64,000 bases of DNA from Vicinamibacterales bacterium (GTDB taxonomy: Bacteria > Acidobacteriota > Vicinamibacteria > Vicinamibacterales > UBA8438), in NCBI GenBank assembly GCA_965202655.1, contig CBDBBK010000002.1:884685-948684 (forward strand). Reading direction: 5' to 3'. The translations under genes were made by a program, and so were the position numbers. The notes below the pieces were generated by a model, which saw only the letters and a list, made by a program, of their open reading frames with translations, made no database searches and was not told the origin of the DNA. Below are positions 3,724 to 62,823 of this stretch, piece after piece. Positions within the stretch are counted from its first letter, which is position 1; each line of letters starts with the position of its first letter.

Positions 3724-3777
3724 CAGTCCGTAGAAGTTTCGCGCCGGCGAAACTTCCAACGCGCCCGGCAGGGCGCG
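3724..3777 (+). repeat. GTRG-tagged double-hairpin REP-like repeat, copy A
   Basis: CCGTAG-AAGTTTCGC-GCCG-GCGAAACTT-CCAA-CGCGCCC-GGCA-GGGCGCG; flanked by CTAG and CCAG. Confidence 0.8.
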
Positions 3778-3802
3778 CCAGCGGCGACAGGGAGGGCACG
3801 AC

Positions 3803-5998
3803 ATGACCACGAGCCGGCAAGTAATCGGTGGCTGCGCGGCGGCGGCGTTCCTGGCGGCGGGCCTCGCGCTACTGGGTCCGCCCGTTGCGGCCCAGGACGA
3901 GGACATCAGCGGCGTCGTGACCAGCGCGGCCGGCCCCGAGGCCGGCGTCTGGGTGATCGCCGAGACGGACGACTTCGAGACCGGCTTCCGGAAGATCGTC
4001 GTGACCGACGACGACGGACGGTTCCTCGTGCCGGACCTCCCCGCGGCCGACTACGAGGTATGGGTCCGCGGGTACGGGCTGGCCGATTCCGACAGGACGC
4101 CCGCGCGGCCCGGCGACGATGTCGCCCTGACCGCGACGGCGGCGGCCTCGCCGGCCGCGGCGGCGGAGATCTATCCCGCCAACTACTGGTACTCGCTGCT
4201 CGAGGTGCCGCCGGCGAGCGACTTCCCGGGCACGGGGCCGCGCGGCAACGGCATCGGCGCCACCATGCATACCCAGGCCGACTGGGTTGACCGGCTGAAG
4301 GACGGCTGCCAGCTCTGCCACCAGCTCGGCAACAAGGCGACACGCGAGATGCCGATGCTCGATCTCGACGAGTTCGACTCGTCGGTCGACGCGTGGGAGC
4401 ACCGCCTCCTGGCCGGCGGCGCCGGGCCGGCGATGTCGGTGGAGCTCAACCGCATGGGCCGGCCGCGCGCGCTTGAGCTGTACGCCGAGTGGAGCGACCG
4501 GATCGCCGCCGGCGAGTTGCCGCCCGCCCCGCCCCGCCCGCAGGGGCGCGAACGCAACATCGTGCTCAGCATGTGGGAATGGGGTCACCCGCGCGGCATG
4601 GTCCACGACGAGATCACGACCGACAAGCGCAACCCGACGCTCAACGCGAACGGCCCGATATACGGGGTCGGCGGCGCCGGGCTCGTGATCACCGATCCGC
4701 GCACCCACGAGTCGGTCCGCATGGATCTGCCGACGCGCATCGAGCGGCCCAGGCGGCCCGTCTCGTATCAGGGGTCGTCGACCCGGATTCCGTCGCTCTA
4801 CTGGGGCGACGAACCGGTCAACCTCCAGAGCCGGAGCGCCCACAACCCGATGCTGGACGACAAGAACCGCCTTTGGATCACGCAGGCGGTGCGGCCGAAC
4901 GACGTGCCGGACTGGTGCCTGGAAGGTTCGGACAACCGGTTCGCACAGTACTACCCGATTCAGCATCGCGACGAGACCCGGCAGGTCTCCTACTACGACC
5001 CCGAGACGGGTGAGTTCGAGCTGATCGACACCTGCTACTTCACGCACCACCTGCAGTTCGCGGACGACGCGGACGACACGCTGTGGTTGAGCGGCTCGAC
5101 CGAAGCGATCGGCTGGCTGAACACGCGCCTCTACGACGAGACGGGCGACGAGCAGGTGTCGCAGGGCTGGTGCCCGACGGTCATCGACACCAATGGCGAC
5201 GGGCAGATCACGAAGCCGTGGAACGAGCCGGACTGGAACGGCGATGTCGAGATCGATCCGGCGCGGGATACACGGGTCGGGAGCCTCGACAAGTTCAAGC
5301 GCGCCTACGGCGTCATCCCCCACCCCGACGGGTCGGTCTGGATCACGCGGCGCTTCCCCGTGCCGGGCAAGCTGATCCGGCTGGACCTCGGGGACAATCC
5401 GCCGGAGACCTGCATCTCCGAGGTCTACGAGCCGCCGTACGATCCGGCCGGCGACGCGAACGACTGGGGCTACGGTCCCCGCGGCATCGACGTCGACCGC
5501 AACGGCGTGATCTGGACCGCGCTCGGCGGCAGCGGACACATGGCCAGCTTCGACCGCAGCAAGTGCGCGGTGCTCAACGGGCCGACCGCCACCGGCCAGC
5601 ACTGCCGCGAAGGATGGACCCTCTATCCGACTCCGGGGCCGAAGCTGCGGGGCGTCGAGGGCTCGGCGAACGCCGACTACCACTACTACAACTGGGTGGA
5701 CCAGTTCGACACGCTCGGCCTCGGCGCGAACACGCCGATCGCGACCGGCACCACGTCGGACGCGCTGCTCGCGCTCGATCCGGACAGCGGCGAATGGGTG
5801 ATCATGCGCGTCCCGTACCCGCTCGGCTTCTACAGCCGCGGGCTGGACGGGCGGATCGACGATCCGGACACCGGCTGGAAGGGGCGCGGCGTCTGGTCCA
5901 GCTTCAACACGGGGTCGCCGCATCACCTCGAGGGCGGTAAGGGAGCGACGAGCGAGATCATCCGCTTCCAGATACGGCCGCATCCGCTGGCGAACTAG
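3803..5998 (+). CDS. Secreted protein: carboxypeptidase regulatory-like domain, single CxxCH haem motif and Vgb/NHL-like beta-propeller
   Basis: Signal peptide; ISGVVTS...GPEAGVWVIA...TDDDGRFLVPDLP; CQLCH; propeller-type repeats; GGGAGG RBS. Confidence 0.7.
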   Translation: MTTSRQVIGGCAAAAFLAAGLALLGPPVAAQDEDISGVVTSAAGPEAGVWVIAETDDFETGFRKIVVTDDDGRFLVPDLPAADYEVWVRGYGLADSDRTPARPGDDVALTATAAASPAAAAEIYPANYWYSLLEVPPASDFPGTGPRGNGIGATMHTQADWVDRLKDGCQLCHQLGNKATREMPMLDLDEFDSSVDAWEHRLLAGGAGPAMSVELNRMGRPRALELYAEWSDRIAAGELPPAPPRPQGRERNIVLSMWEWGHPRGMVHDEITTDKRNPTLNANGPIYGVGGAGLVITDPRTHESVRMDLPTRIERPRRPVSYQGSSTRIPSLYWGDEPVNLQSRSAHNPMLDDKNRLWITQAVRPNDVPDWCLEGSDNRFAQYYPIQHRDETRQVSYYDPETGEFELIDTCYFTHHLQFADDADDTLWLSGSTEAIGWLNTRLYDETGDEQVSQGWCPTVIDTNGDGQITKPWNEPDWNGDVEIDPARDTRVGSLDKFKRAYGVIPHPDGSVWITRRFPVPGKLIRLDLGDNPPETCISEVYEPPYDPAGDANDWGYGPRGIDVDRNGVIWTALGGSGHMASFDRSKCAVLNGPTATGQHCREGWTLYPTPGPKLRGVEGSANADYHYYNWVDQFDTLGLGANTPIATGTTSDALLALDPDSGEWVIMRVPYPLGFYSRGLDGRIDDPDTGWKGRGVWSSFNTGSPHHLEGGKGATSEIIRFQIRPHPLAN

Positions 5999-6077
5999 GA
6001 CTGCTTTGCGGAGGGGCGAACGCAAGCGCGCGGACCGGACACCGCCGGCCGCCGCAAGACGGAGCGGCGGAGGGTAG

Positions 6078-6704
6078 ATGCGCAAGGCGGTAATCGCGCT
6101 CGCGGCGCTCGCCGTGCTCGGCGGGCTGTTCTGGTGGACGGTGCAGAGCAGCCTGGCCGAGCCGTACGTCGTCGACGCCGGCCTCGTCTCCGAGTGGAAC
6201 GTCGCGCTGCGCGGACCGGGGCGGGGCGCCGGCCTGCTCGTGCTGGAGACTTCGGACCAGCTTCGCGCCGAGTTGTTCCAGCAGATCTTCACCCGCACGA
6301 TGGAGTCGATGGTGTCGCCGCCGACGGCGGCGGTGCCGCTGGTGCTCGCCTCGGAGTACCGCCAGTCGCTGGGGAGCGCGCTTTCGCCGGAGGACCTGCT
6401 CCGGGTGGCGGAGGAATCCGGGTTGCCGGACGCCGTTCCCGCGCCGGTCTGCATCGGCGTGGTCCGGGGCGAAGGCGCCGCCAGCACGCGGCAGCTCTAC
6501 TACGCGATCTTCGAGGCGCCCGAAGCCGGCCGCTTCCGTGACGCGCTGGCGCGCCGCTACGGCGAGGCCGGCGGGACGGGGGCGTTCCAGCCGGACAGCT
6601 TCCCGCTGGTCATGCCGCTCGCCGCCTCCGACAACGATTTCGCGAGCTGGTGGCCGCTGGACGTCAGCCCCGCCGACTGCCTGGCGCCGCTCGTCACGCA
6701 GTAG
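6078..6704 (+). CDS. Hypothetical membrane-anchored protein
   Basis: N-terminal TM helix, host-like codon usage, GGAGG RBS. Confidence 0.7.
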   Translation: MRKAVIALAALAVLGGLFWWTVQSSLAEPYVVDAGLVSEWNVALRGPGRGAGLLVLETSDQLRAELFQQIFTRTMESMVSPPTAAVPLVLASEYRQSLGSALSPEDLLRVAEESGLPDAVPAPVCIGVVRGEGAASTRQLYYAIFEAPEAGRFRDALARRYGEAGGTGAFQPDSFPLVMPLAASDNDFASWWPLDVSPADCLAPLVTQ

Positions 6705-7130: not shown

Positions 7131-7164
7131 GGGCGTGTGGCATCGAGCGGCGAGCGGGTGTGCG

Positions 7165-7458: not shown

Positions 7459-7528
7459 GCTCTCTAGCACGGCGGTGAGTTTACCACCCCCCTCTGTCCG
7501 TCTATAGTTGGCGCTGGGAAGGAGCACC

Positions 7529-8051: not shown

Positions 8052-8465
8052 TCACCTTCGCCCCAAGAACTCGCGGACGCGCTCGGCGACGCCCTCTCGG
8101 GTTACTTCGCACTCCCAAATCACGAGCACGTCCCAGCCTAGCTCGGTCAGCCGGGCACGGTGCTCGATGTCGCGCTCCTGGTTGCGGCGGAGCTTCGGTT
8201 CCCAGTACTCAAGATTCGATCTCGGTCGGTGGGCAAGCTTGCAGTTCGGATCCGGATGTTGGTGCCAGAAGCACCCGTGCACGAAGATTACTTGGCGCCG
8301 ACCGGGAAAGACGAGATCGGGACGCCCAGGGAGATCATGCCGGTGTAGGCGGTAGCGGTAGCCCATGGCGTGCACTAGGCGGCGTATCGCCAGCTCGGGC
8401 TTCATCCCCTTGCTGCGAATCGCGCGCATGGTGGCGCTGCGCACCTCAGGACTCACTCGATCCAA
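8052..8465 (-). CDS. vsr: Very short patch repair endonuclease
   Basis: MDRVSPEVRSATMRAIRSK..KPE...DLPGRPDLVF...IFVHGCFWHQH...DVLVIWECE; TTG start with GGAGG RBS. Confidence 0.95.
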   Translation of the reverse strand: MDRVSPEVRSATMRAIRSKGMKPELAIRRLVHAMGYRYRLHRHDLPGRPDLVFPGRRQVIFVHGCFWHQHPDPNCKLAHRPRSNLEYWEPKLRRNQERDIEHRARLTELGWDVLVIWECEVTREGVAERVREFLGRR

Positions 8466-8505
8466 GGCTACTGCCTCCGCTTGTAGCTCAATAAGAGGTT
8501 ACCGC

Positions 8506-9420
8506 ATGGCATTGCAGATAAAGGAGTTCTTCGGATATGCCCCTCGAGACCCGGCTGCCGCCGACGACGTGGCGGAGCAGCGCTGCCCCTTCGTGGAGAG
8601 CGACTGCATCAAGCCTAATCATGGGGCGTGTTCGGTGCAGCAAGTGACCGCGCCGGAGCCAGTTATCTGCTGCCCGAACCGAATGTACGCCGACGACTTT
8701 CAGATTCTGAAGGAGATTGCGGTTGAGGCTTTCGGGCCCGATGCTGAGCTCATCCGACCGGCCGACGTAGAGGGGCGTGCCGCGGTCGGCGGCATGACCG
8801 GGCGTGACGTCGCTGTGTTCGGTCGCTATTGGGGCCAGGAACTGCCCCTGCCACGTCCTCAAGGCCAAGGTGCGGCGGCGTACTACGTGGACTGGATTCT
8901 GGCCAAGCTCGATGCCCATGGCGCACTGGACGAACTGACAGCGGTTGAGGTCCAGACGATCGATACGACGGGAAACTACAGCGACCAGGCGCGGCGCTTT
9001 TTCGCGGGCCGGGCGTTCAGAGACCCGCAGGGTCGGAACCCCGGCTACAGCGATGCCGGCATGAACTGGGAGAACGTCAACAAGCGCATTCTCCCGCAGA
9101 TCATTTACAAGGGGCACGTACTCCGACTCGAAGAGAGATGCACGAAGGGGCTCTATTTCGTCTGCCCCCAGCAGGTCTATAGCCGGATTCGGGAGCGGCT
9201 GGGCGGCAATCTGCACAACATCCACCCAAGCCCGGGGGCGATAACGTTCCGGAGCTACGAGTTGGGGCCGGAGGTGCCGGCAGGCCGGCGACGCGCCATG
9301 ACGCTCTCGGAGCAGTTCACGACGACGGTGGACCAAGTTGCTTTGGCATTTACGGCCCCGATGAATCTCCCGGAGCGAAACGTGTATGCGGCGGCGATCA
9401 ACACGGCTCTCGGGAGGTAG
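8506..9420 (+). CDS. NotI-family restriction endonuclease (paralog A)
   Basis: Cys4 motif CPF-x4-C...CS...CCPNR; VDWIL...VEVQTIDTTG; NWENVNKRILPQIIYKG. Confidence 0.8.
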   Translation: MALQIKEFFGYAPRDPAAADDVAEQRCPFVESDCIKPNHGACSVQQVTAPEPVICCPNRMYADDFQILKEIAVEAFGPDAELIRPADVEGRAAVGGMTGRDVAVFGRYWGQELPLPRPQGQGAAAYYVDWILAKLDAHGALDELTAVEVQTIDTTGNYSDQARRFFAGRAFRDPQGRNPGYSDAGMNWENVNKRILPQIIYKGHVLRLEERCTKGLYFVCPQQVYSRIRERLGGNLHNIHPSPGAITFRSYELGPEVPAGRRRAMTLSEQFTTTVDQVALAFTAPMNLPERNVYAAAINTALGR

Positions 9421-9422
9421 CG

Positions 9423-10601
9423 TCACAACGCTACAGCAGCGTCCGCTTTGGCAGGCTCGACTTCCAAGCGGGACGTGTAGCGCGGTGCCCATCTGGAGCC
9501 GGCCTCAATGAGCGCCAACCCAATCTGCTTCGCGAGAAGTGGCGGAACGGCGTTTCCGACCTGCACGTACTGTTCCGTGCGTGGACCAGCAAACAGGAAC
9601 CAGTCGAAGAAGGACTGGAGGCGGGCAGCTTCGCGGACACTCAGAGTACGATCCTGTTCGGGGTGAATGTAGGCTCCCCAATGCAGGTCACACTTGGTGA
9701 GAATCGTAGAAGCAAGCCCGTCTCTGCGAAGTCTACCGTAGCGCTTCGTGTGGTCACATCGGCGGGCGCGTTTCATCCCAGCGGGCAACAGCTCATACGG
9801 TACGTCGCGCCAGCTCCCGCCCTCGGGAATGTGCTGCATCCGGCGAAGGTTAATTGGCGCAAGGCAGGGGGCGGCATGGTTTGCGACGCGCACGGAGTCG
9901 CCACGAAGGTACGCTTGGTAATCAGTCCTCGGCGCCGTGCGGTAGCGTATCGGACCCTCGGGAACCTCGCCGTTCGCGAGCGGCGGAAGATCCCCGATGG
10001 CGTCCCACACCGTGACAAAGGGGCGGAGTCCAGGGCCGTGGGTCGGTGCCGGCCAGCGGATCGGGAGGCCCAGCCTGTTGCCCAGAAAAAAGATGCGGCG
10101 GCGCTCCTGCGGTACACCGTATTCCTCCGCTCGGAGAATCCGCGTCTCGACGGTGTACCCAAGGTCTCCAAGGCCGGCGAGGATGTTCTCGACGGCTTGA
10201 CCGTCACCGGTCGACGTGATGCCGGTGACGTTCTCCATGACGACCCATCTGGGCATCAGTCCCCTGACGACGCGTAGGTACTCACGGAACAAGCCACTCC
10301 GCTTGTCGTGCATTCCGCGCTGGTGGTTGTAGACGCTGAACGCTTGGCATGGCGGGCCACCGATGAGACAGTCCAACTCCCGTTTCTTAATCCCTGCGGC
10401 TCTCAGGAAATCGCGGGCAGAAATGTCTTCGATGGCACCCGGCAGAAACTGCGCTTCGCGATGGCTCGCCACGTACGTATCGGCGGCGAAGGGGTCGAGA
10501 TCGTTGCCCGCAAGGACGCGGAATCCTGCTTGGCGGAAGCCCTCGGAGAGGCCGCCCGCGCCACAGAATAGGTCGATGGCTGTCCATGGGCGATCGGTCA
10601 T
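9423..10601 (-). CDS. DNA (cytosine-5) methyltransferase
   Basis: Motif I DLFCGAGG, IV GGPPCQ, VI ENV, VIII QERRR, IX REAARLQSF, X GNAVPP. Confidence 0.97.
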   Translation of the reverse strand: MTDRPWTAIDLFCGAGGLSEGFRQAGFRVLAGNDLDPFAADTYVASHREAQFLPGAIEDISARDFLRAAGIKKRELDCLIGGPPCQAFSVYNHQRGMHDKRSGLFREYLRVVRGLMPRWVVMENVTGITSTGDGQAVENILAGLGDLGYTVETRILRAEEYGVPQERRRIFFLGNRLGLPIRWPAPTHGPGLRPFVTVWDAIGDLPPLANGEVPEGPIRYRTAPRTDYQAYLRGDSVRVANHAAPCLAPINLRRMQHIPEGGSWRDVPYELLPAGMKRARRCDHTKRYGRLRRDGLASTILTKCDLHWGAYIHPEQDRTLSVREAARLQSFFDWFLFAGPRTEQYVQVGNAVPPLLAKQIGLALIEAGSRWAPRYTSRLEVEPAKADAAVAL

Positions 10602-10792: not shown

Positions 10793-10811
10793 CGTATCTA
10801 GCCCATAATGC

Positions 10812-12088: not shown

Positions 12089-12427
12089 AGGCGGTTTCCT
12101 TGGCTAGCTCGACGCGCCAAATGTGTACCTCAGACATCGGGCAGTAAGTATTGTAGCGTCAATGACGTCACGAACACGTGGGAGGTCCGGCTGGCGCGTT
12201 CGTGCGGCGACACCGCGCCAGCGCGTGTCCTGTGCAGCGGATGGAAGCAGCAAACCATGGCCGCACCGCAGTGGTCGATCGCCGGACGGTATCGCACGCC
12301 AGAAACCAGTCGCGGACAAGACGACGGCGGAGGGACGGAGGGAAGCTGCGTTGTGTGGCAGCTAGTGGTCCGTCACGTGTCAACCTTAGGACTATCGGGA
12401 AGCTGGTTTCGAGCCGAAACAGCTTTC

Positions 12428-12874
12428 ATGCCGGAGAAAAAGTACATCGTTCGACTCAGCGCCCAGGAACGCGAGATCTGTCGACAGACGGTCCGCAAGC
12501 TCAAGGGTAGCAGCGAGAAGGTGCGGCGCGCTCAGATTCTCTTGCAGGCGGATGTGGACGGACCGGGGTGGACCGACCAGCAGATCGCCGACGCCTTGTC
12601 GTGCCGCACGAAGACCGTCGAGAACATTCGCCAACGCTGCGTTCAAGCGGGTTTCGAGCGGGCCCTGGAACGCAAACGGCGGGTGTTGCCCCCCGGTCTG
12701 AAGCTGCTCGACGGCGAACAGGAGGCGCAGGTCATCGCCCTGCGCCTGGGGTCGCCGCCGCAGGGCTACGCGAACTGGTCGTTGCGGCTGTTGGCGCGCC
12801 GTGTCGTCGAGTTGGGGGTGGTCGAGTCGGTCAGCCATGAAACGATCCGGCGGACGCTCAAAAAAACGCGATGA
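12428..12874 (+). CDS. IS630 transposase OrfA (HTH part)
   Basis: KKYIVRLSAQER...RRAQILLQAD...W.DQQIA..L...WSLRLLA...SHETIRRTLKK; ends just after an A7 slippery run. Confidence 0.9.
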   Translation: MPEKKYIVRLSAQEREICRQTVRKLKGSSEKVRRAQILLQADVDGPGWTDQQIADALSCRTKTVENIRQRCVQAGFERALERKRRVLPPGLKLLDGEQEAQVIALRLGSPPQGYANWSLRLLARRVVELGVVESVSHETIRRTLKKTR

Positions 12875-13566
12875 CCCGGCGGAAGCTCGAGTACTGGGTG
12901 ATCCCGCCGCAGGCCGATGCCGAATTCGTGGCGCACATGGAACAGGTCTTGGACCTGTATCAGCAACCCTACGACCCGGCCAGCCCCGTCGTGTGCATGG
13001 ATGAGCAGCCGGTGCAGCTGGTCCAGGAGACGCGCCCGCCGGTGGCCGCCACGAAGACACGCCCGCGTCGCGTCGACTACGAATACGAACGGGCCGGCAC
13101 GGCCTCGGTGTTCCTGTTCAGCGAGCCGCTGGCGGGTTGGCGCCAGGCGACGGCCCGAGCCCGGCGTACGAAGGCGGACTGGGCGGTCGAGGTCGCCGCG
13201 CTGCTGGAAGGCCGCTACGCCGACTGCCCGCGGGTCACCCTCGTGTGCGACAACCTCAATACGCACACGAAGGGCGCCTTCTACGAAGTGTTCGAGCCGG
13301 TGCGGGCACGAGAACTGGTTCGTCGCCTCGCGTTCTGCTACACGCCCAAACACGGGAGCTGGCTGAACATCGCGGAGAACGAGCTCAGCGCCATGACGCG
13401 CCAATGCCTGCGCGGACGCCGCATCGGCGACCTCGAGACGTTGCACGACGAAGTGTCGGCGTGGTCCAGCGACGTCAACCACACCCAACGCGGCGTCGAC
13501 TGGCAGATGAAGGTCGACGATGCTCGCTATAAACTCAAGTCCGTCTATCCGAATATTGTGATGTGA
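12871..13566 (+). CDS. IS630 transposase OrfB (DDE domain), probably fused to OrfA by -1 frameshifting
   Basis: VVCMDE, LVCDNLNTH, YTPKHGSWLNIAENE DDE_3 motifs. Confidence 0.9.
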   Translation: MTRRKLEYWVIPPQADAEFVAHMEQVLDLYQQPYDPASPVVCMDEQPVQLVQETRPPVAATKTRPRRVDYEYERAGTASVFLFSEPLAGWRQATARARRTKADWAVEVAALLEGRYADCPRVTLVCDNLNTHTKGAFYEVFEPVRARELVRRLAFCYTPKHGSWLNIAENELSAMTRQCLRGRRIGDLETLHDEVSAWSSDVNHTQRGVDWQMKVDDARYKLKSVYPNIVM

Positions 13567-13766
13567 CGGACCACTAGGCGCCGTGGGACAATTCGTTCTC
13601 CGCACTGCGGACGTGCCGGGAACGAAGCCCCGGGAGCGCCTTCTGGGGAAGGTGTCGCGGTCACGGGCCGACATGAACTTCGGGATATCGGAGGGCGGAT
13701 CGACCGGCGTCCTCGCTTTTTTGTCCGGCCTCTCGACCTGCCTACGTCACGAAGGAGCAGATCATT

Positions 13767-32179: not shown

Positions 32180-32204
32180 CCCATGGCAGGTGTGTCCCGC
32201 ACGA

Positions 32205-32239
32205 GGAACGGTTCGTTCCGACGCGCCCGTCAGGGCGCG
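32205..32239 (+). repeat. Degenerate double-hairpin repeat, copy E (overlaps the ligD stop)
   Basis: GGAACG-GTT-CGTTCC-GA-CGCGCCC-GTCA-GGGCGCG. Confidence 0.55.
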
Positions 32240-34353
32240 CTGACGGCCGCTTCCAGCCGGGCCAGGGCGTCTTCGAGATTGGCCGGCGCCACCGTCCGGG
32301 TCCCGGCCCACAGGTCGCCCACCTCGTCCAGCCGCGCGTGGATGGAGCGCATCGTGAAGTCGCGCGGCTGGAGGCCGGACCGCGGGCCGTCATGCACCTC
32401 GGCCCAGGTGAGCGGCGCGGAGACGCCGGCGAACGGGCTGGCCCGCGCGCTGTAGGCGCAGGCGAGCGTCTTGCCGTAGATGTTCTGCAGGGTATCGATG
32501 TAGACCGCGTCGTCGGGGCGGCGCCGGACGGTGCGCTCGACGGTGGCCGCTTCCGGATGGCGCGCGGCGACGACCGTGGCGACGATCTGGCAGAAGATCA
32601 TCCCCGCCTGGTACGGTGTGCCGGCCGGTAGCGGAATGAAGATGTGCAGGCCCTCGGAGCCGGAGGTCTTGGCGAACGACGGCACGCCGAGCCGCTCCAG
32701 TTCGTCGTGGAGCCAGCGGGCGACGTCGAGCACGCGCGTGAACGGCGCCCGGGGCATCGGGTCAAGGTCCAGCGCCGCCATGTCGGCCTCCGTGATCCGG
32801 TCGAGCGTCGAGAACCACGGATCCTGCGAGATGACGGCGAGCTGCGCCATGTAGAGCAGCGTCTGCGGTTGCCCGCCGATCAGGTACGGCACTTCGGAGT
32901 CGGCCGATCGCTCCGCGCCGTCGCCCAGCTTCTCCGCCACGAGCGCGACCCGGGTTCCCTCCGGGATGGGGTCCGGCGCGCGGTGTTGATAGAACGACTT
33001 GCCGTCCACGCCGTTCGGGAACCGCTTCATGACGAGCGGCCGGCCGGCCACCACGGGCAGCACATAGGGCGCGGCGCGCAGGTAGTAGCGCAGCAGGTCG
33101 CCCTTCGTGAGCCCGGGTTCCGGCCAGAACACCTTGTGCAGGTTGCCGACCGGCACGCGCGCGCCATCGGCGAGGACGAGCGTGCCCTGGCGCCGGCTCG
33201 CTTCCAGCGTGTCCACCTCCGCGAGCAGGTGGTCGGCCGCCGGCGGCTCGGGCCGCGGTTCCGGGGCGGCACGCCCGCGCCCGCTTCTTCGGGCCGGCTG
33301 CGGAGCGGCGGCCGGCCGCCTGTTCTCGTGGCGGACTGCGGCGGGCCGAATGTCGTCGCGCAGCCCGTGGTAGACCGGGTTCCGGAGGATTCCCTCGCGT
33401 GTCCACTGCGTGAACGTGACGCGCGCCACCAGCTTCGGCTTCACCCAGTTGCGCGTCTCGGGCCGGTACGGCGCCGGCACTTCGGCGAAGGGCGCCGTAT
33501 CCGTGACGAGCGGCGCGAGCCATTCGGCCATCCGATCGAGTTCGGTGTCGGTAAAGCCGGATCCCACCTGGCCGGCGAAGATGAGCGGCGTTGTGCGAGT
33601 CACGCGCCCGCCGGCGGGGTAGTAGCCGAGGAGCAGGGCGCCGATGTGCCGGCGCGAACCGCGCGGCGCCGTCCAGCCGCCGACCACGAAATCCTCGGAC
33701 TGCGTGAACTTCAGCTTCTGCCACTGCGCGCTCCGGCGTCCGGAGGCGTAACGGCTTGCCGGCTGCTTGACGATGACGCCTTCCCAGCCGTGCGCCCGGC
33801 CGTCGGCGGCCAGCGCCACACCATCTCCGACCTGGCTGTCGGCGAGGCGGATCAGTTGGACGTCGCGCCGCCGCCCGCGCAACAGGCCCTCGAGCCGCTG
33901 CCGCCGTTCGTGGCAGGGGAGTGGCCGCAGGTCTTCGTCGCCCTCGCGCAGGAGGTCGAAGAGGACCAGGGCGACCGGCGCCTTGCGCGCCGCCGCTTCC
34001 GCCGCCGCGCCGGTGCGTTGCAGCCGATCCTGCAGGAACTGGAACGCCCGCGGGCTCCCGTCGTCCGCCGTCGCCACCACTTCGCCGTCGAGCAGCACCG
34101 GGCGGCGCAGTCGGCGCGCGAGGCGCCGGAGCGGATCGACGAGATCGGGGAACTCGGCGATCTTGTTGCGTCCCAGCCGCGCGTAAATCGCGGGTGGAGC
34201 CGGGCCGTCGAGCGCGACCAGGGCGCGGATGCCGTCCAGCTTGGGCTCGAAGATGAGCCGCTCGTTCCGCAATAGCCGGGCGTGGGTTTCAGGTGGCGCC
34301 AGTTCCGCCAGCATGGGACGGACGTCGCGCGGGTCGTCGCGCCAGAGGGTCAC
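32230..34353 (-). CDS. ligD: DNA ligase D (ATP-dependent ligase plus primase-polymerase domain)
   Basis: EPKLDGIR, LLDGEVV, FDLL, EGVIVK, WQKLK, VVGGWT; PolDom NLHKVFWP, KRFPNG, DLDP, KTSGSEGLH, YIDTLQN. Confidence 0.95.
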   Translation of the reverse strand: MTLWRDDPRDVRPMLAELAPPETHARLLRNERLIFEPKLDGIRALVALDGPAPPAIYARLGRNKIAEFPDLVDPLRRLARRLRRPVLLDGEVVATADDGSPRAFQFLQDRLQRTGAAAEAAARKAPVALVLFDLLREGDEDLRPLPCHERRQRLEGLLRGRRRDVQLIRLADSQVGDGVALAADGRAHGWEGVIVKQPASRYASGRRSAQWQKLKFTQSEDFVVGGWTAPRGSRRHIGALLLGYYPAGGRVTRTTPLIFAGQVGSGFTDTELDRMAEWLAPLVTDTAPFAEVPAPYRPETRNWVKPKLVARVTFTQWTREGILRNPVYHGLRDDIRPAAVRHENRRPAAAPQPARRSGRGRAAPEPRPEPPAADHLLAEVDTLEASRRQGTLVLADGARVPVGNLHKVFWPEPGLTKGDLLRYYLRAAPYVLPVVAGRPLVMKRFPNGVDGKSFYQHRAPDPIPEGTRVALVAEKLGDGAERSADSEVPYLIGGQPQTLLYMAQLAVISQDPWFSTLDRITEADMAALDLDPMPRAPFTRVLDVARWLHDELERLGVPSFAKTSGSEGLHIFIPLPAGTPYQAGMIFCQIVATVVAARHPEAATVERTVRRRPDDAVYIDTLQNIYGKTLACAYSARASPFAGVSAPLTWAEVHDGPRSGLQPRDFTMRSIHARLDEVGDLWAGTRTVAPANLEDALARLEAAVSAP

Positions 34354-38797: not shown

Positions 38798-39780
38798 GCG
38801 CACCCGCCGCCGAACCAGCGGCTTCGACCGAGTCGCCGCCCCCCGGCCGACCCACCGGGGGGCGCGCCGGCCGCGCCGTGTTCCTGCTGCTGAGCCTCGC
38901 GTGTTTCGCCTATCTCTACGTCCGGCTGAACGGCGCCGCGGCGCGCGAGGGGCTGACCCTCGTCGATTACATGACGCGCGTCTTCAGTGGGGTGGACTGG
39001 GTCTCGTGGATCGTGTTGATGATGGCCTACTCCGGCTTCTATTTCCTCATCGACACGCTGGTCGTGTCCCGCGCGCTCAACTGGTTCGTCACGTCCATCC
39101 GTTACCGCGACCTCCTGCCCGTCCGGGCGAGCGCCTACATCATCTCCATCTTCAACGAGCAGATCGGCAAGGGCGCGATGGCCTACTACCTCCACCGGCG
39201 CCACCAGGTGCCGGGCTGGGAGGTGGGCTCCGTGATGCTCTTCATCATGTATTGCGAGGTCTTCTACCTGCTGTTCTGGGCGACGGTGGGTTATGCCGCA
39301 AGCGGCGGCGAGCTGCCCGCGGCGTTCGCCCTGATGCCGTGGCTTGCCGCCGCCGCGGTGCCGGTCTTCGCGGTGTGGCTGCTCTATTTCCGCGGCGCCA
39401 TCCTGCCCGGCAACGCGTTGCGGAACAAACGGATCCTCCACGCGTTCCGTTCCGCCAGCCTGCGGCACTACCTCCTCTTCCTCGCGCTCCGGTCGCCGGC
39501 GCTACTGGCGGCCGTGATCGTCTACACGATCGCGCTCCGGCTGTTCGGCGTGGACGCGTCGTTCCTGTCGCTGCTCGGTTATCTCCCGGTCGTCTTCTTC
39601 GCGGCCGCCGTGCCCACGCCGATGCGCGCCGCCGCGATCACCTTCTGGGTCATCCTGTTCCCCGAAAACGAAGGCCAGATGGCCGCGTTCGGCTTCGTGC
39701 AGCACAACTTCTTCATTCTCTTCAACGCCCTCATCGGCGTTGCGTTCTGGCCCCGTGCCCAGCGGGATCTGTTCGGCTAG
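38794..39780 (+). CDS. Integral membrane protein, LPG-synthase TM/flippase-like
   Basis: About 8 hydrophobic segments; RASAYIISIFNEQIGKGAMAYYL; ATGA-coupled to the upstream gene. Confidence 0.6.
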   Translation: MSAPAAEPAASTESPPPGRPTGGRAGRAVFLLLSLACFAYLYVRLNGAAAREGLTLVDYMTRVFSGVDWVSWIVLMMAYSGFYFLIDTLVVSRALNWFVTSIRYRDLLPVRASAYIISIFNEQIGKGAMAYYLHRRHQVPGWEVGSVMLFIMYCEVFYLLFWATVGYAASGGELPAAFALMPWLAAAAVPVFAVWLLYFRGAILPGNALRNKRILHAFRSASLRHYLLFLALRSPALLAAVIVYTIALRLFGVDASFLSLLGYLPVVFFAAAVPTPMRAAAITFWVILFPENEGQMAAFGFVQHNFFILFNALIGVAFWPRAQRDLFG

Positions 39781-39937
39781 CAGCCCGTGGCGAAACCCCG
39801 CGTGACACTGAGAGCGGCGAGGCGCCCGGCTGACAAGGCGCGACGAGGGAGCCTATTGGCCATAGGCGACCGAGGAGCAACGCCGTTCAGCCGGGATGCA
39901 GCGCCGCTCGAATGTAGCGGGGTTTCACCACGGGCTG
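39781..39937. mobile_element. 157-bp MITE/REPIN-like element (full copy)
   Basis: 21-bp TIRs CAGCCCGTGG(C/T)GAAACCCCGC (20/21 match); flanked by CTAG and CCAG; internal hairpin GCCTAT-TGGCC-ATAGGC; no ORF. Confidence 0.8.
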
Positions 39938-39950
39938 CCAGGGGCTTGCG

Positions 39951-40000
39951 CCGTAGAAGTTCCGCGCCGGCGGAACTTCCAACGCGCCCGCCAGGGCGCG
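39951..40000 (+). repeat. GTRG-tagged double-hairpin REP-like repeat, copy B
   Basis: CCGTAG-AAGTTCCGC-GCCG-GCGGAACTT-CCAA-CGCGCCC-GCCA-GGGCGCG. Confidence 0.8.
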
Positions 40001-40019
40001 CTAATCGCAAGGCTCCCCG

Positions 40020-42910: not shown

Positions 42911-42964
42911 CGTGTACCTCCTCCGGAAGCGCGTGCGGTCCGGCCGCCAGGGCGGCGCAAGCTC

Positions 42965-43483
42965 CTAGCTGCGCGAAACGACGCGGAAACTCCACCAGCC
43001 GTCGGGGCGCGGCGAGCCGAGCGGCGCCGGCGGGTTGGCGGGCTCTTCCAGGCTGTGCAGCTTGTCGAGCCGCGCTACCCACGCCTGATCGAGTTCCGCC
43101 GGGTCGAGCACGCGGGTCAGCGTCACCGGAAAGACAGTGCCGTCGAGCCGCAGCCGCGCCCACCCGTCGTTCACCGCGTAGCCGGACCAGCGCTTGCCGT
43201 CGCAGTTCGAGCAGCTCAGGTAGAGGTGGCCGTCCCGGTTGGCGAAACAGTTCAGGTTGATCGCGTGCGGGAGCAACCCGGTGCGAATCTGAATCTGGCA
43301 GAGCGTCACCTGGTTGGCGAAAGTCCAGTCGGCCACCGGGTCGTTGTTCGCCGTGCCGAAGAGCCAGCCGCCCGGCGTCCGTTCGCACGGACAGGTGGCC
43401 GACCATCCCACGAACCCGGCGCCCACTACGATCACGACAACGGCGACCGCGATGAGCGCATTACGCTGCGTCAAGTTCGACAT
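42965..43483 (-). CDS. Membrane-anchored hypothetical protein, probable split-barrel (DUF2255/DDN-like) fold
   Basis: N-terminal TM; WSATCPCERTPGG; LYLSCSNC; KRW...ARLRLDGTVFPVTLTRVLDPAELDQAW; AGGAGG RBS. Confidence 0.6.
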   Translation of the reverse strand: MSNLTQRNALIAVAVVVIVVGAGFVGWSATCPCERTPGGWLFGTANNDPVADWTFANQVTLCQIQIRTGLLPHAINLNCFANRDGHLYLSCSNCDGKRWSGYAVNDGWARLRLDGTVFPVTLTRVLDPAELDQAWVARLDKLHSLEEPANPPAPLGSPRPDGWWSFRVVSRS

Positions 43484-46044
43484 CGACTTGCCTCCTGTCC
43501 AGGTATTGAAGCTCTCGCCGTGGAAGTTTCGCGCGAGCGAAACTCCCAACGCGCCGCCCCGCGGCGCGCATGTTCCGCCACGGTCTCGGCCATGTCCGTT
43601 TCCAGGCCCGGTCGGACCAGCGCCTCGCGCGAACCGCGGTGCGCCCATCCCGGCGCCGGCGTCTGCGCGACGGGCGCCAGGCCCGGCGCGTCGTAAGAAC
43701 GAGTCGACTGTTCCGCGGGGACAATTCCGTACGCGGTGGTCCGCTGCCGCGGAGTCCGTCCCGCCTCGAGGATCAGCGGTTCCATCCGTTCCGGCGGCAG
43801 TTCCTGGCCGAAACCGGCGCCCGCGGCGCGCGTGATGCTTTCGTTCATCAGGGTGCCGCCCAGATCGTTTACGCCGGCATTGAGCAGGGCATGGACGCCG
43901 CGCGGGCCCATCTTGACCCAGGACGCCTGGATGTTCGTCAAGACCGGATGCAGCGCCAGCCGCGCGACGGCGTGCATCAGTACCGACTCGCGGAAGGTCG
44001 GTCCGCGCCGGGCGCGTCCCTGGAGGTAGATCGGCGCCTCCATATGGACGAAGGGGAGGGGCACGAACTCCGTGAAGCCGCCGGTCCGCGCCTGAAGTTC
44101 GCGAACCGCGGCCAGATGCTTCGCCCAGTGATGCGGGCGGTCGATGTGCCCGTACATGATCGTTGCGGTGGTTCGGAACCCGACCCGGTGCGCGGTCTCC
44201 ATCACCTCGAGCCACTGCCCGGAGGTCAGCTTGTCGGGGCAGAGCTCCTGCCGCACTTCGTCGTGGAGCACTTCGGCGGCGGTGCCCGGAAGCGTGCCGA
44301 GCCCGGCGTCGCGCAGTTGCCGGAGGAACGACTCCAGCGGCAGGCCGAGGGTCGCCGCTCCCTGCCACACCTCGAGAGGCGAGAACGCGTGGACGTGGAT
44401 CCCGGGAACGGCTTCCTTCACGGCCCGGCAGATGGCCAGGTAGGTCGCGCCGGTGTAGTCGGGATGAATGCCGCCCTGCATGCACACTTCGGTCGCGCCG
44501 CGCTCCCAGGCTTCGCGGGTGCGGCGGGCGATTTCGTCGAGGTCGAGGTCGTACGGCGCGCCGCGCAGGTTCTCGCTCAGCTTCCCCTTGGAGAAGGCGC
44601 AGAAGCGGCACTTGAAGTAGCAGACGTTCGTGTAGTTGATGTTGCGGTTGACGACGTAGGTCACCGTGTCGCCGTTCATCTCCCGGCGGAGGGCGTCGGC
44701 GATGCGCACCACGGTCGTCAGGTCGTCGCCCCGGGCGGTGAACAGGTGCGCGATCTCCGTCTCGTCCAGGCCGTCGCCACGCGCCGCTCTCGCGCAGATC
44801 GCCGCGGTGGCCGACGCTGGGAGCCGCGCAGGCGCGGCCGGTCGCTCGGCGAGGCGATCGAGCAGCGCCGCCGGCAGCACGGCCTCCGGATCTCCCGGCG
44901 ACCATTGGCTGTCGCGCGCGAACCCCTCCGCGTCGGACCCCTGCACGATCGCGGTTCTCAGCGGTTCCGCCACCCAGGTGTCGAGCGCCCGCACATACGC
45001 CGGATAGACCGTCAGTCGCTCGGTGAGCGCCTTTCCCCCGCGTTCGGTTTCGCGGGCGAGGCGATCCAGATGCGGCCAGGGCGCTTCCGGGTTGACATGA
45101 TCCGGCGTGACGGGAGAAACGCCGCCGCAGTCGTTGATGCCGGCCCGGATCAGGGCGCCGAACGTGTCCGGCGACAGATTGGGCGGCGCCTGAATCGCCA
45201 TCCCGGGACCAAAGAGGATCCTGGCGCAGGCAATCGTCCACTGCAGGTCCTTGAGCGACGGTTCGGGCGCATCGACCATGCGCGTCCCCGGCTTCGCCCG
45301 GAAGTTCTGCACGATGATCTCCTGCAGGTGCCCGTAGGCGTCGTGCAGATCGCGCAGCGCGAGCAGCGAGTCGATCCGTTCCTGCCGCGTCTCGCCGATG
45401 CCGATGAGGATGCCGGACGTGAACGGGATGGCCAGTTCGCCCGCGAGGCGAATTGTCTCGAGCCGCGCGTCCGGGTCCTTGTCCGGCGATCCATGATGCG
45501 CCGCGCCGCGCTCGAGTAGCCGCCGCGAGACGCTTTCGAGCATCAGCCCCTGCGACGGACAGACCTCGCGCAGCGCGAGCAGTTCGTCCCGGGTCATCAC
45601 GCCCGGATTGGCGTGCGGCAACAGGCCGGTCGCCTCGAACACCGCGCGCGCGGCGGCCACCAGGTACGCGACCGTCGTCGGGTAGCCGAGCGCGGCCAGT
45701 TCCTCGCGCGCCTGCGGATAGCGCTGCTCCGGCTTGTCGCCCAGCGTGAACAGGGCTTCCCGGCAACCCGCCGCGGCGCCGCGGCGGGCGATGTCGACCG
45801 CCTCGTCGATCGTCAGATAGGCGCGCTCGCCCGGCCGTGGCGGTTGCGCGAACGTGCAGTAGTGGCAGACGTCGCGGCAGAGCTTCGTGAGCGGGATGAA
45901 GACCTTGCGCGAGTAGCTGACGGGGCGTCCGAAGCCGGCATCCCGTAGCGCCGCGGCCCGCCGCATCAGTGCCGGCAGATCGGTTGTCCGCGCCAGTTCG
46001 GTGGCGTCTTCTCGCGAGGGCGGGGCGTAGGCGCGGGCATCCAT
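43471..46044 (-). CDS. fbiC: Bifunctional FO synthase (CofG+CofH fusion)
   Basis: YSRKVFIPLTKLCRDVCHYC and NRNINYTNVCYFKCRFC radical-SAM motifs; HGSPDKDP; QAPPNL; GINDCGGVSP; PGTAAE; NIQASWVKMG; GGTLMNESITRAAG. Confidence 0.95.
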   Translation of the reverse strand: MDARAYAPPSREDATELARTTDLPALMRRAAALRDAGFGRPVSYSRKVFIPLTKLCRDVCHYCTFAQPPRPGERAYLTIDEAVDIARRGAAAGCREALFTLGDKPEQRYPQAREELAALGYPTTVAYLVAAARAVFEATGLLPHANPGVMTRDELLALREVCPSQGLMLESVSRRLLERGAAHHGSPDKDPDARLETIRLAGELAIPFTSGILIGIGETRQERIDSLLALRDLHDAYGHLQEIIVQNFRAKPGTRMVDAPEPSLKDLQWTIACARILFGPGMAIQAPPNLSPDTFGALIRAGINDCGGVSPVTPDHVNPEAPWPHLDRLARETERGGKALTERLTVYPAYVRALDTWVAEPLRTAIVQGSDAEGFARDSQWSPGDPEAVLPAALLDRLAERPAAPARLPASATAAICARAARGDGLDETEIAHLFTARGDDLTTVVRIADALRREMNGDTVTYVVNRNINYTNVCYFKCRFCAFSKGKLSENLRGAPYDLDLDEIARRTREAWERGATEVCMQGGIHPDYTGATYLAICRAVKEAVPGIHVHAFSPLEVWQGAATLGLPLESFLRQLRDAGLGTLPGTAAEVLHDEVRQELCPDKLTSGQWLEVMETAHRVGFRTTATIMYGHIDRPHHWAKHLAAVRELQARTGGFTEFVPLPFVHMEAPIYLQGRARRGPTFRESVLMHAVARLALHPVLTNIQASWVKMGPRGVHALLNAGVNDLGGTLMNESITRAAGAGFGQELPPERMEPLILEAGRTPRQRTTAYGIVPAEQSTRSYDAPGLAPVAQTPAPGWAHRGSREALVRPGLETDMAETVAEHARRGAARWEFRSRETSTARASIPGQEASRCRT
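43518..43568 (+). repeat. GTRG-tagged double-hairpin repeat, copy C (inside the fbiC 3' end)
   Basis: CCGTGG-AAGTTTCGC-GCGA-GCGAAACTC-CCAA-CGCGCCGC-CCC-GCGGCGCG. Confidence 0.75.
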
Positions 46045-48997: not shown

Positions 48998-49046
48998 GAG
49001 CCCGTGGTGAAACCCCCGTTACATTCGAGCGGTGATGCATCCCGGC
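48998..49046 (-). repeat. Partial copy (one end) of the 157-bp MITE family
   Basis: GAGCCCGTGGTGAAACCCCCGTTACATTCGAGCGGTGATGCATCCCGG matches the reverse complement of 39891-39937; follows CTAG containing the upstream stop. Confidence 0.75.
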
Positions 49047-49048
49047 CC

Positions 49049-49588
49049 CTAACCGGGTCGGGTCGCGCCGGCCTCTTCCCGCAGGATGGAGTAGAGCAGT
49101 TGATCCTGCACGACACCGTCCTTGATGGCGCTCCGGCGCAGGCGGCCCTCGAGCTGGTAGCCCACCTTTTCCAGCACGCGGCAGGAAGCCGTGTTCGAGG
49201 CGAAGGGCAGGGCGTACAACCGCTCCAGTTCATAGGCGGCGAAAGCAAAGCGCGTTAACGCCGCCAGCGCGCGCGTGGCGATGCCGCGACCCCAGTACTC
49301 CTCCCCGAGCCAGTACCCGATCTCGGCCGAGCAACGCTCCACGTCGTCGCGCAGGACCACACCGATGACGCCTGCCGGTCGGTCATCCACGGTGATCGCG
49401 AACGCCGTCTCCCGATCCTGCCCGCGCATGAACCCGATAAACCGATGCGCATCGTCGATCGTGTAGGGATGCGGAAACTGGTCCCGCAGTTGCTGCCAGA
49501 CCTTGTGGTTGTTGGCGTGCCGGGCGATCTCCGCGGCGTCGGCGTCGTGAAGCGACCGAACGCCGCAGTGCCCGAGGTCGAGCTGCAT
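49049..49588 (-). CDS. RimJ/RimL-type GNAT acetyltransferase
   Basis: DQFPHPYT; AEIGYWLGEEYWGRGIAT; NTASCRVLEKVGYQLEGRLRRSAIKDG. Confidence 0.92.
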   Translation of the reverse strand: MQLDLGHCGVRSLHDADAAEIARHANNHKVWQQLRDQFPHPYTIDDAHRFIGFMRGQDRETAFAITVDDRPAGVIGVVLRDDVERCSAEIGYWLGEEYWGRGIATRALAALTRFAFAAYELERLYALPFASNTASCRVLEKVGYQLEGRLRRSAIKDGVVQDQLLYSILREEAGATRPG

Positions 49589-56110: not shown

Positions 56111-56112
56111 GG

Positions 56113-58476: not shown

Positions 58477-58498
58477 CGTTTTCCTCCGCGTGACCGGG

Positions 58499-58972
<474 letters not shown>

Positions 58973-59027
58973 GCGTCACCTCCTGACAAGAGCCGGCGCC
59001 CTGTCGCCCGCCCGGTGCACGATAACG

Positions 59028-59882: not shown

Positions 59883-59905
59883 TCTAATCCTCCGATCTCC
59901 TGGCA

Positions 59906-59951
59906 GGGATGCATCGCCGCTCGAATGTAGCAGGGGTCTTACTACGGGCCG
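59906..59951 (+). repeat. Partial copy (one end) of the 157-bp MITE family
   Basis: GGGATGCATCGCCGCTCGAATGTAGCAGGGGTCTTACTACGGGCCG matches 39893-39937; abuts the TAG stop of the 59952 gene. Confidence 0.7.
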
Positions 59952-61274: not shown

Positions 61275-61305
61275 AGCGGCGGCCGCAAGCGAAAGGGAAC
61301 GGTAG

Positions 61306-61381
61306 TGGGGTGAGTGACGGGGATCGAACCCGCAACATCCGGAGCCACAGTCCGGTGCTCTACCATTGAGCTACACTCACC
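61306..61381 (-). tRNA. tRNA-His: tRNA-His (GTG), with encoded G-1 and CCA
   Basis: GGTGAGTGTAGCTCAATGGTAGAGCACCGGACTGTGGCTCCGGATGTTGCGGGTTCGATCCCCGTCACTCACCCCA: acceptor stem GTGAGTG/CACTCAC, anticodon arm CCGGA-CTGTGGC-TCCGG, TTCGA T-loop. Confidence 0.97.
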
Positions 61382-61412
61382 ACGGAGCCTGCCCGCAGTG
61401 CGGGCAAACCCG

Positions 61413-61440
61413 CATTGTAGCAGTCCCGCCCGCTACAATG
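61413..61440. promoter_or_regulatory. Palindromic back-to-back TACAAT -10 boxes (divergent tRNA-His / phosphatase promoter)
   Basis: CATTGTAGC-N10-GCTACAATG. Confidence 0.5.
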
Positions 61441-61446
61441 AGACCG

Positions 61447-62755
61447 ATGGCTCCCGAGACCGCAGACCGGCGCGACGCTCGGCCGACCGCCAGAATCGAC
61501 GGTGGCGCGATCAACTCCGCCCGGGTGATGGTCGAGGCGTTCCGGCTGGCCAGCGATGCCACTGATGCGCCGCGCATTCTGAACGGTATTCTCGACGGCC
61601 TGGTGTCGCTTGTCGATCACGATGCGGCAGGCGTCTACGTCGTCGACGCGCTAGGCGAACGGATTTTCCCACAGCCTCGCGCGCGGCTGCATCAATCCCG
61701 CGCCGGTCGACATGCGCGCGCCGTTCGATGACCAAGGCGTCGTCGGCCGGGTTCTCGCCGGTAGCGGCCCGCTGTCGTTGCACGATCAGGCGGGTGTCTG
61801 CGAGGGGCGCGACGTCGCCCGCTCCCGTCTCGTTGTCCCGCTCATCGGCGCCGGCGGCCGGATCCGGGGAGCGCTGGACCTGTGGTCCGACCGCTCGAAC
61901 GGCTACGACGACGCGGCGCTGGAAGTGGTCGAGTTGTACGCCATGGCGGTCGCGGTCGTGATCGAGAACGCCCGGTTGATCGAGGAAGTGCACAGCCGGC
62001 GTCGCCTCGACGGCGAGTTGCAGTTGGCGCGCGACGTGATGGAGGAGCTGCTCCCGCGCGACATTCCCTCCCTGGAGGGTTTCGACATTGCCGGCGTGCA
62101 CGAGTCGTCGCGCGCGGTCGGAGGGGACTACTACGAGTTCATGCCGCTTCCCGAGGACCGGTGGGGTGTCGTGATCGCCGATGTCGTCGGCAAGGGCATC
62201 GCGGCGGCGCTGATGGCGGCGGCCACGCGCGCGTCGATGTCCTCCCTGGTGGGGCACGAGCTGGCGGTCCGCGCCGTGATGCGCCGCGCCAACCGGTTCT
62301 TCCATCAGTCGATGGAGGAGGGACGCTACGTCACGCTCTGTTACATGGTGCTCGACGTGCAGGCGCAGCGCCTGCTGTACGTGAACGCCGGGCATGTCCC
62401 GCCGCTGCTGCTGCAGGCGGATGGCGGCGTGAAGCTGTTCACCGAGGGGGGCGTACCCCTCGGGCTGTTCGAATCACCCCGCTACTTCGAAGGCCATGCG
62501 GCGTTCGAGCCGGGTGATGTCCTCGTTCTCTACACGGACGGGATTGTCGAACAGACGAACGCGGAGGGCGAGGAGTTCGGCCGCGCCCGGCTGATCGAGA
62601 CTATCCGTCAGTCGGCGGACGCCGGCGCGACCGAGATGTGCAGCCGTGTGATGCAGCGCGTGCACCGCTTCGGCGGCGGCGCGCAGGCCGACGATCGGAC
62701 GCTGGTCATCCTGAAGTCGACCGCGCCCGCCGACCCGCACCCGCTACCGTCGTAG
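61447..62755 (+). pseudogene. GAF + PP2C/SpoIIE (RsbU-like) phosphatase split by an apparent 1-bp insertion at 61664-61670
   Basis: C-part: AVGGDYYEF, IADVVGKG, LYVNAGH, YTDGIVE, DDRTLV; N-terminal GAF part is in another frame; removing one T from ATTTTCCC joins the frames. Confidence 0.7.
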
Positions 62756-62789
62756 CACGCCGTCGTGGGCGCGACGGCCGTCCGGCCGC

Positions 62790-62823
62790 CGCGCGAAACT
62801 CCAACGCGCCTTCCCGGGCGCGC
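62790..62823 (+). repeat. Truncated double-hairpin repeat, copy D (abuts the DUF3500 stop)
   Basis: CGCGCGAAACTCCAACGCGCCTTCCCGGGCGCG followed by CTAG. Confidence 0.6.

Follow-up and report, generated by a model that had tools for sequence, protein, structure and literature searches.

A 64,000-nt stretch of a Vicinamibacterales genome (GenBank assembly GCA_965202655.1, contig CBDBBK010000002.1, positions 884,685 to 948,684 of the forward strand; this whole stretch is called the window below) carries five copies of a short repeat that folds into two hairpins, and it raises the question of what kind of sequence this is and what dispersed it. The window corresponds to C2:884685-948684 of a 4.16-Mb genome of the family Vicinamibacteraceae (68% G+C; three contigs, C1, C2 and C3). 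Identity of its flanking DNA was 95% to a Vicinamibacteraceae metagenome-assembled genome (MAG) and 85-87% to a complete Vicinamibacterales chromosome. The public runs containing the window sequence were labelled sponge or marine metagenomes, and the locus was found in none that is known to be of RNA type. The first-pass annotation of the window had suggested an undescribed repetitive extragenic palindrome (REP) of the GTAG kind or a structured RNA. The data presented below make it very probable that the repeat is, or formerly was, mobile. On balance, we favour a small non-autonomous mobile DNA element of REP-like kind that docks on TAG.

All five copies were confirmed (three full, one diverged and one truncated at its 5' end; Table 1), each on the plus strand of the window and together far beyond what chance would give: the 15-mer AACTTCCAACGCGCC, with up to two mismatches, occurred four times in the window versus 0.14 expected, and none of 100 shuffles reached four. 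The compensatory swaps and the CCGTAG or CCGTGG starts quoted in the first-pass annotation were likewise present, namely AAGTTTCGC/GCGAAACTT versus AAGTTCCGC/GCGGAACTT in hairpin 1 and CGCGCCC..GGGCGCG versus CGCGCCGC..GCGGCGCG in hairpin 2. Profile search of the whole genome (nhmmer, E<1e-3) identified approximately 50 copies, and covariance model R1 likewise found 50, which established the dispersed repeat family that had been predicted from the window. The genome-wide alignment gave the consensus C(C/T)AG-GAGCTTGCGCC-G(T/C)AG-AAGTTTCGC-GCCA-GCGAAACTT-CCAA-CGCGCCC-GCCA-GGGCGCG-C-TAG-C. The full unit of about 63 nt (60-63) thus comprises a YAG triplet, the 5' arm GAGCTTGCGCC, G(T/C)AG, a 10-bp hairpin, CCAA, a 7-bp GC hairpin, a C and a second YAG, and it exceeds the unit first described by the conserved 5' arm C(C/T)AG-GAGCTTGCGCC and the usual end GCGCGC-TAG-C. 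Unrelated GC-rich terminator hairpins, alike by chance or convergence, were considered, as GC-rich palindromes are common at 68% G+C, with some 155 occurrences of CGCGCC..GGCGCG by itself on each strand. However, 60-70 nt could be aligned at approximately 90% identity, unpaired linker, loops and 5' arm included, and the covariance model scores rose to 80 bits; together with the excess of the 15-mer, these values refute that explanation.

The copies were arranged as singletons or as direct tandems, e.g., C1:80638/80703 and C1:187108/187171. At four loci, a second, partial unit was joined at ...GGCGCGC/TTTCGCG..., a junction that recurs in gammaproteobacterial copies; such partial units would arise secondarily at the repeated CGCGCC. 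At two further loci (C1:1487048 and C3:609171), a short variant lacked hairpin 1, the 5' arm being joined straight to hairpin 2, and this arrangement suggests that the termini matter more than hairpin 1.

Both stems are maintained by compensatory change, as had been proposed from the window, and this holds among the copies of the genome as well as between genera and between phyla. Among 41 copies of this genome, 91.9% of the cells were paired and seven pairs showed double changes (pair 14-26 was CG16/UA14/UG7); across lineages (the genus, two other genera and gammaproteobacteria), 98.1% were paired (pair 5-45, AU32/GC24/CG7; pair 54-70, CG56/AU14), these figures counting sequences and not events, and the cross-lineage alignment having been fitted to the model. 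None of 500 shuffles reached the own-genome or the cross-lineage pairing scores, and slid controls of the own copies were 16-50% paired. The changes are read from the alignments as about five lineage-level compensatory events.

Such constraint might be expected of a functional RNA, i.e., of hairpins at 3' ends that terminate transcription or shield mRNAs and are selected as RNA. The location of 45 of the 50 copies at gene 3' ends, the conservation of both stems and a consensus that folds better than shuffles (z about -3 on either strand) are all in line with that explanation. However, the copies face either way with respect to the neighbouring gene, and intermediates of the G.T and C.A types were equal in number (28 versus 27), so that no strand is marked as RNA. 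Hairpin 2 was not followed by a T-run in the consensus, which continues C-TAG-C-G/T, orthologous sites in congeners were empty, and some copies lay inside open reading frames (ORFs). In Rfam 15, no family matched the repeat: at the gathering score, the single match in the window was a tRNA, and a threshold of E<=10 gave chance-level matches over copy C. We therefore regard a primary role as RNA or terminator as improbable; the transcribed hairpins may nevertheless have some effect as RNA. The suggestion that the family is undescribed held, as no description of it was found in the literature either.

Exact presence or absence of the 63-nt unit was seen at orthologous sites of congeners. A relative's copy (L021, also G015 L100) corresponded to an empty site of the studied genome at C2:60.4k (AATCCGC-TAG-CGCC), the filled site C1:294115 was empty in congener G015 (GGTATCG-TAG-CCGC), and the filled site L098 of G015 was empty in the studied genome (ACACCG-TAG-CC). 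The copy at C2:80934 was missing from all four congeners examined and that at C2:796680 from three; both form 21-codon (63-nt) in-frame insertions in ORFs, the latter within a signal peptide. Other sites, e.g., C2:966072 and C2:1253426, are common to the studied genome and G015, and some insertions must therefore be older. These differences would represent gains of the unit.

The relationship of the copies to genes was evaluated with a heuristic codon-usage model, whose calls are crude and in some cases wrong. Of the 50 copies, 21 were placed between convergent genes, 24 between tandem genes (at the 3' end of the upstream gene), two between divergent genes and three inside predicted ORFs, with intergenic spacers of the genome being 15% convergent, 70% tandem and 15% divergent (hand-calculated chi-square versus the copies of about 33, 2 d.f.). 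Approximately 30 of the 50 supplied the TAG stop of a predicted gene at model positions 5, 20 or 67, using the left YAG for a gene on the same strand, the GTAG, or the right CTAG for one on the other strand; when the GTAG was used, the protein received a QELAP tail (four cases). The tetranucleotide CTAG was 11-fold under-represented genome-wide (1075 observed versus 12318 expected), with one third of its occurrences at predicted stops, and TAG accounted for 37% of the predicted stop codons. Annotators should note that the element has created or changed several gene ends in these genomes, through TAG stops, through QELAP tails and through in-frame inserts of 21 codons.

The copies of the window illustrate these contexts. 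Copy A is located 20 nt upstream of the ATG at 3803, with divergent genes on either side. Such a place in a 5' region is exceptional, being shared with one other copy of the genome; the orthologous site in congener G015 (L069) contained just a palindrome resembling hairpin 2. Copy B occupies the 50-nt gap of a convergent gene pair, and its hairpin 2 loop contains the TGA stop (32230-32232) of the minus-strand gene. The left CCAG of copy C doubles as the right flank of a 157-bp MITE (miniature transposable element with inverted repeats), and the junctions of this copy were spanned by metagenome contigs. Copy D falls in the final ~30 codons of ORF 43471-46044 (minus strand); at the corresponding empty sites of congeners (L060, L061), the gene ends at TAG and no element is present, and copy D thus appears to have replaced the TAG stop, extending the upstream ORF through the element. 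Copy E provides, with its CTA at 62823-62825, the TAG that ends the minus-strand ORF 62823-63878.

In the reading that we favour, the element would insert at or beside (C)TAG. As CTAG survives mainly as stop codons in this genome of 68% G+C, insertions at it would be harmless at gene 3' ends; they would often leave or supply a TAG stop and occasionally land in frame within genes. The hairpins, and not their sequence, are conserved, and they are presumably what is recognised; they would serve as the recognition structure for an enzyme acting in trans. The likeliest type of enzyme would be one that reads hairpins on single-stranded DNA (HUH-like). Given mobility, such a hairpin- or single-strand-type enzyme is put forward tentatively, and a DDE transposase acting at CTAG is a possibility of slightly lower rank; what remains falls to other types.

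The flanks of the element bear on this choice. Empty sites carried the triplet TAG in five cases, CAG in two and a diverged triplet in two. Filled sites showed YAG on both sides, the left triplet being CAG in 19 of 32 (TAG in six) and the right one TAG in 15, besides scattered variants; the youngest copy also carried a left CAG. The flanking triplets may have arisen as a target duplication of 2-3 nt, or the element may end in a triplet that mimics its target. Four models were compared: two of them duplicate TAG or AG, one has an element that brings CAG and enters 5' of TAG, and one an element that brings TAG and enters 3' of YAG. Two sites, L098 and C1:294115, are bordered by GTAG on the left side and CTAG on the right side, which excludes a duplication of 4 or 6 bp. 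Vsr-type T-to-C repair as the source of the left CAG excess found no support: CTAGG was no rarer than the scarcity of CTAG would predict (observed/expected ratio, 1.09).

A MITE moved by a CTAG-targeting DDE transposase (IS630-, IS5- or IS1380-like), with the YAG sides as a short target duplication (TA or TAG), is the possibility that we rank next, at clearly less than an even chance. Among insertion sequences (ISs), IS630 targets CTAG and duplicates TA, IS481 targets NCTAGN, and IS1380 makes 4-bp repeats. In agreement with that explanation, empty sites had a single TAG where filled ones (L098, C1:294115) had it on either side, and the empty site L067 also had just one. The same CTAG sites host the 157-bp MITE, which bears terminal inverted repeats, and ISs of the IS630, IS481 and IS1380 families, two IS1380-family copies having inserted in the right-hand CTAG of the element, and the gammaproteobacterial form sits as a module in a CTAG-flanked IS1380-type MITE. 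In contrast to such elements, the repeat has ends that are not mutual inverted repeats and that resemble no IS end in the genome, and its flanking repeat does not exceed 3 nt. The left CAG, carried by the youngest copy too, is not expected of a fresh TAG duplication, and neither TAG nor CTAG flanks accompany the core where it has spread in other genera or as solo gammaproteobacterial copies.

The element of REP-like kind docking on TAG has observations of its own to contend with, and the following weigh against it. No candidate for the moving enzyme was found: this genome contained no Y1_Tnp/RAYT domain (PF01797; REP-associated tyrosine transposase), with control genomes positive, and no TnpB-type domain (PF07282). 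A Y2 search of the genome is void, its positive control having given no match either. Since no HUH-like gene was found in the genome, the copies here are probably fossil or served by an enzyme that was not recognised. Terminal inverted repeats were absent (left end GAGCTTGCGCC; right end, in reverse complement, GCGCGCCCTGG), and the IS630, IS481 and IS1380 ISs of this genome, all CTAG-flanked, have ends unrelated to the element. At the eight informative sites, each of the four flank models called for some five additional T/C changes, and no association with TAG was seen in the copies of the other genera or in the solo gammaproteobacterial ones. Within sponge metagenome populations, no insertion polymorphism was observed: copy C and C2:80934 appeared in the filled state only, in short Logan contigs that break at repeats. 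Finally, the 50 copies showed no replication-strand bias (19 leading versus 31 lagging, p=0.12), unlike active IS200/IS605 elements.

The last comparison was based on cumulative GC skew, which falls monotonically on C1 (all negative), rises monotonically on C2 (all positive) and turns once on C3, at 640 kb; the three contigs therefore belong to one chromosome, with all of C2 in one replichore. Copies in both directions were found on C2, and genome-wide 27 were plus and 23 minus. The uniform orientation noticed at first is thus real for the window and represents a local run (five co-oriented of five arise by chance in 1 of 16 cases, two-sided), and the replication-strand bias expected from it was not borne out.

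The first-pass annotation had related the repeat to the classical GTAG REP/REPIN systems (REPIN, REP doublet forming a hairpin) mobilised by a RAYT. The likeness to these systems (Bertels and Rainey 2011, PMC3116915; Di Nocera et al. 2013, PMC3733652) is considerable: a short GC-rich hairpin repeat without inverted repeats in tens to hundreds of copies, with GTAG at the hairpin foot (here, in most own copies, on the 5' side of hairpin 1) and with lineage variants that keep the stem. GTAG REPs have been described as similar in size and placed at gene 3' ends, with the TAG of the tag serving as a stop codon and with in-frame intragenic copies (PMC3733652); in these respects, TAG stops and in-frame copies such as those observed here were already known. 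RAYT-like genes were also present in four congeners. The element differs in having two different hairpins and a 5' arm, and no inverted dimers (REPIN pairs) occurred among the ~50 copies of the genome. The tag gave a mixed picture: GTRG was the majority state in this genome, with T at the variable position in 28 of 45 copies, and GCAG, GCCG or CTTG stood in its place in other lineages. Four relatives rich in the element (G025, G027, G040 and G041; 20-61 copies, 98-100% complete) contained no Y1 or RAYT gene. Across 61 relatives, RAYT-like genes did not correlate with the copy number of the element (five high-copy genomes were without one), and no element lay within 1.5 kb of the nine RAYT-like genes inspected. 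These genes were associated with other repeats. The RAYT-like gene of G007/G013 (locus L041, 1058-2007) forms a classical REPtron with inverted arrays of GGTCCGCCGGCCTCCAGGCCGGCA, and the gammaproteobacterial RAYT-like loci L044 and L046 (~2025-2171) carry a perfect 45-47-nt inverted pair with two other hairpins, i.e., a different double-hairpin REPIN. Mobilisation by a RAYT is thus largely refuted, and we give it little credence.

The closest described situation is that of an orphan REP family. Orphan REPs (CGTC REPs and the Rickettsia palindromic elements, RPEs; PMC3733652) are likewise dispersed palindromes with no linked transposase and with some in-frame ORF copies, and they differ in tag and sequence; the present element, in addition, shows exact insertion polymorphism among congeners and docking on TAG/CTAG. 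Palindrome-associated transposable elements (PATEs) derived from IS200/IS605 share with it asymmetric ends with a hairpin near each; they, too, lack inverted repeats and insert next to a short, fixed target akin to the other end of the element. In contrast to PATEs, this genome contains neither TnpA nor TnpB, the copies are not biased by replication strand, and hairpin 2 directly abuts the end. The bacterial interspersed mosaic elements (BIMEs) of E. coli, mosaics of REPs with other motifs, resemble it in being modular arrays, the present element forming tandems of partial or whole units and alternating with other hairpin modules in the gammaproteobacterial MITE; the arrays of the element are direct repeats, unlike the alternating orientation of BIMEs. 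As found here, the element therefore falls outside the REP-RAYT systems, the MITEs (no inverted repeats) and the IS200/IS605 family (no transposase, no strand bias). What is new is the two-hairpin unit with its 5' arm, insertion polymorphism without a RAYT, and a core common to two phyla in sponges.

The distribution of the element is patchy. Genomes of the genus contained 50, 8, 17, 51, 5, 1 and 3 copies, and two other genera of Vicinamibacteraceae held 20-61 copies of a diverged variant; the 24 genomes sampled outside the family but within the order had none. One genome per species was scanned with an exact pattern, by which the gammaproteobacterial copies were ascertained, and the core was confined to Vicinamibacterales MAGs and to MAGs of Gammaproteobacteria/Pseudomonadales. 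Gammaproteobacterial MAGs from sponges contained from 16 to at least 147 matches to model R1 per genome, with scoring limited to 150 candidates, and one such genome was also present in sponge metagenome runs, including a study that contains this window. In the gammaproteobacteria, the core occurred solo or in tandem, in both cases with unrelated flanks, or, in several genomes, as one module in a MITE of ~300-400 bp with IS1380-like inverted repeats, CTAG flanks and a variable number of other hairpin modules. Inside this modular MITE, short hairpin modules follow one another in variable series, among them tandem GCACGTCCGCGTGCCAGGAG units and the double hairpin. One gammaproteobacterial copy (L035) has the acidobacterial 5' arm. 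REPINs have been described in a preprint (bioRxiv 10.1101/2022.05.22.493013) as vertically inherited, versus the near-identical core in two phyla reported here. A more far-reaching and speculative reading, which we hold to be unlikely though worth stating, is that of a hairpin-defined, RAYT-independent element exchanged between Acidobacteriota and Gammaproteobacteria that inhabit the same sponges, partly inside IS1380-type MITEs, and mobilised by a class of enzyme with which repeats of this sort have so far not been connected. In high-GC genomes, TAG stops would then offer the element a place to dock without harm.

For REPs and similar small hairpin repeats, the usual explanation is a resident RAYT, and they are said to be passed on vertically; the present family is structurally constrained, polymorphic and RAYT-less. 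If the favoured reading is true, the family would offer a tractable case for asking what else moves such repeats, and for following the transfer of non-coding mobile DNA in a host-bound community.

Table 1. Copies of the double-hairpin repeat in the window and mobile elements that share its docking sites. Positions without a contig prefix refer to the window; CM, covariance model.
Feature	Position	Strand	CM score	Description
Copy A, full	3720..3781	+	76.1 bits	CTAG, shortened 5' arm (CAGTCC), GTAG, hairpin 1 3733-3742/3747-3756, CAA, hairpin 2 3760-3766/3771-3777, C-CAG
Copy B, diverged	32203..32240	+	32.7 bits, E=2.8e-5	Short hairpin 1 (GGAACG/CGTTCC), GA, canonical hairpin 2 (CGCGCCC GTCA GGGCGCG)
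Copy C, full	39938..40004	+	79.7 bits	CCAG, GGGCTTGCGCC, GTAG, hairpin 1 39956-39965/39970-39979, CAA, hairpin 2 39983-39989/39994-40000, C-TAA
Copy D, full	43505..43574	+	59.7 bits	G-C/C-G variant of hairpin 2
Copy E, 5'-truncated	62793..62826	+		3' half of hairpin 1, CAA, hairpin 2, CTAG; nhmmer model positions 36-72, E=3.6e-4
Solitary 5' arm	42951..42968	-		CTAG-GAGCTTGCGCCGCC; its TAG is the stop of ORF 42965-43483
157-bp MITE	39777..39941			Terminal inverted repeats CAGCCCGTGGCGAAACCCC ... GGGGTTTCACCACGGGCTG
IS630-family IS	12362-13577			DDE_3 domain, inverted repeat TGGTCCGTCAC...; inserted in CTAG; three genome copies
IS481-family (1.03 kb) and IS1380-family (1.7 kb, ~7 copies, one tandem pair) ISs	C1:1340399-1341440; C2:1361367-1364791; C3:186524-188232; C2:992667-994375			
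Modular MITE	L002, L004, L005, L015, L020, L022, L025, L026, L029-L032, L040			IS1380-like ends (CTAG-CCCGGATTATTCATG...); sponge gammaproteobacterial MAGs

The 157-bp MITE that abuts copy C is a separate family using the same docking site. It has ~20-nt inverted repeats (GAGCCCGTGGTGAAACC...) and CTAG/CCAG flanks, has the TAG stop codon of gene 38878-39780 as its docking point, and takes the place of the element at two orthologous sites. Dozens of copies with 90-94% identity were present in congeners G014, G016 and G017, fragments were found in the window near 48994-49050 and 59900-59950, and its depth in sponge metagenomes was ~100x that of the flanks. Terminal inverted repeats of the element were sought in several registers, among them a likeness of its 5' arm to the MITE end (GAGCTTGCGC versus GAGCCCGTGG), and the match was too weak to claim.

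Elsewhere in the window, a minus-strand cluster (8052-10601) encodes a Vsr mismatch endonuclease (8052-8465), an unassigned 334-aa ORF (8488-9492) and a C5 cytosine DNA methylase (9423-10601); together they probably form a restriction-modification unit. The DNA around them, at 7-22 kb, scored poorly with the genome codon model and may have been acquired. The tRNA gene that gave the sole Rfam match of the window is located at 61309-61380 on the minus strand, and another copy of the repeat, at C2:623890, adjoins a tRNA-like sequence.

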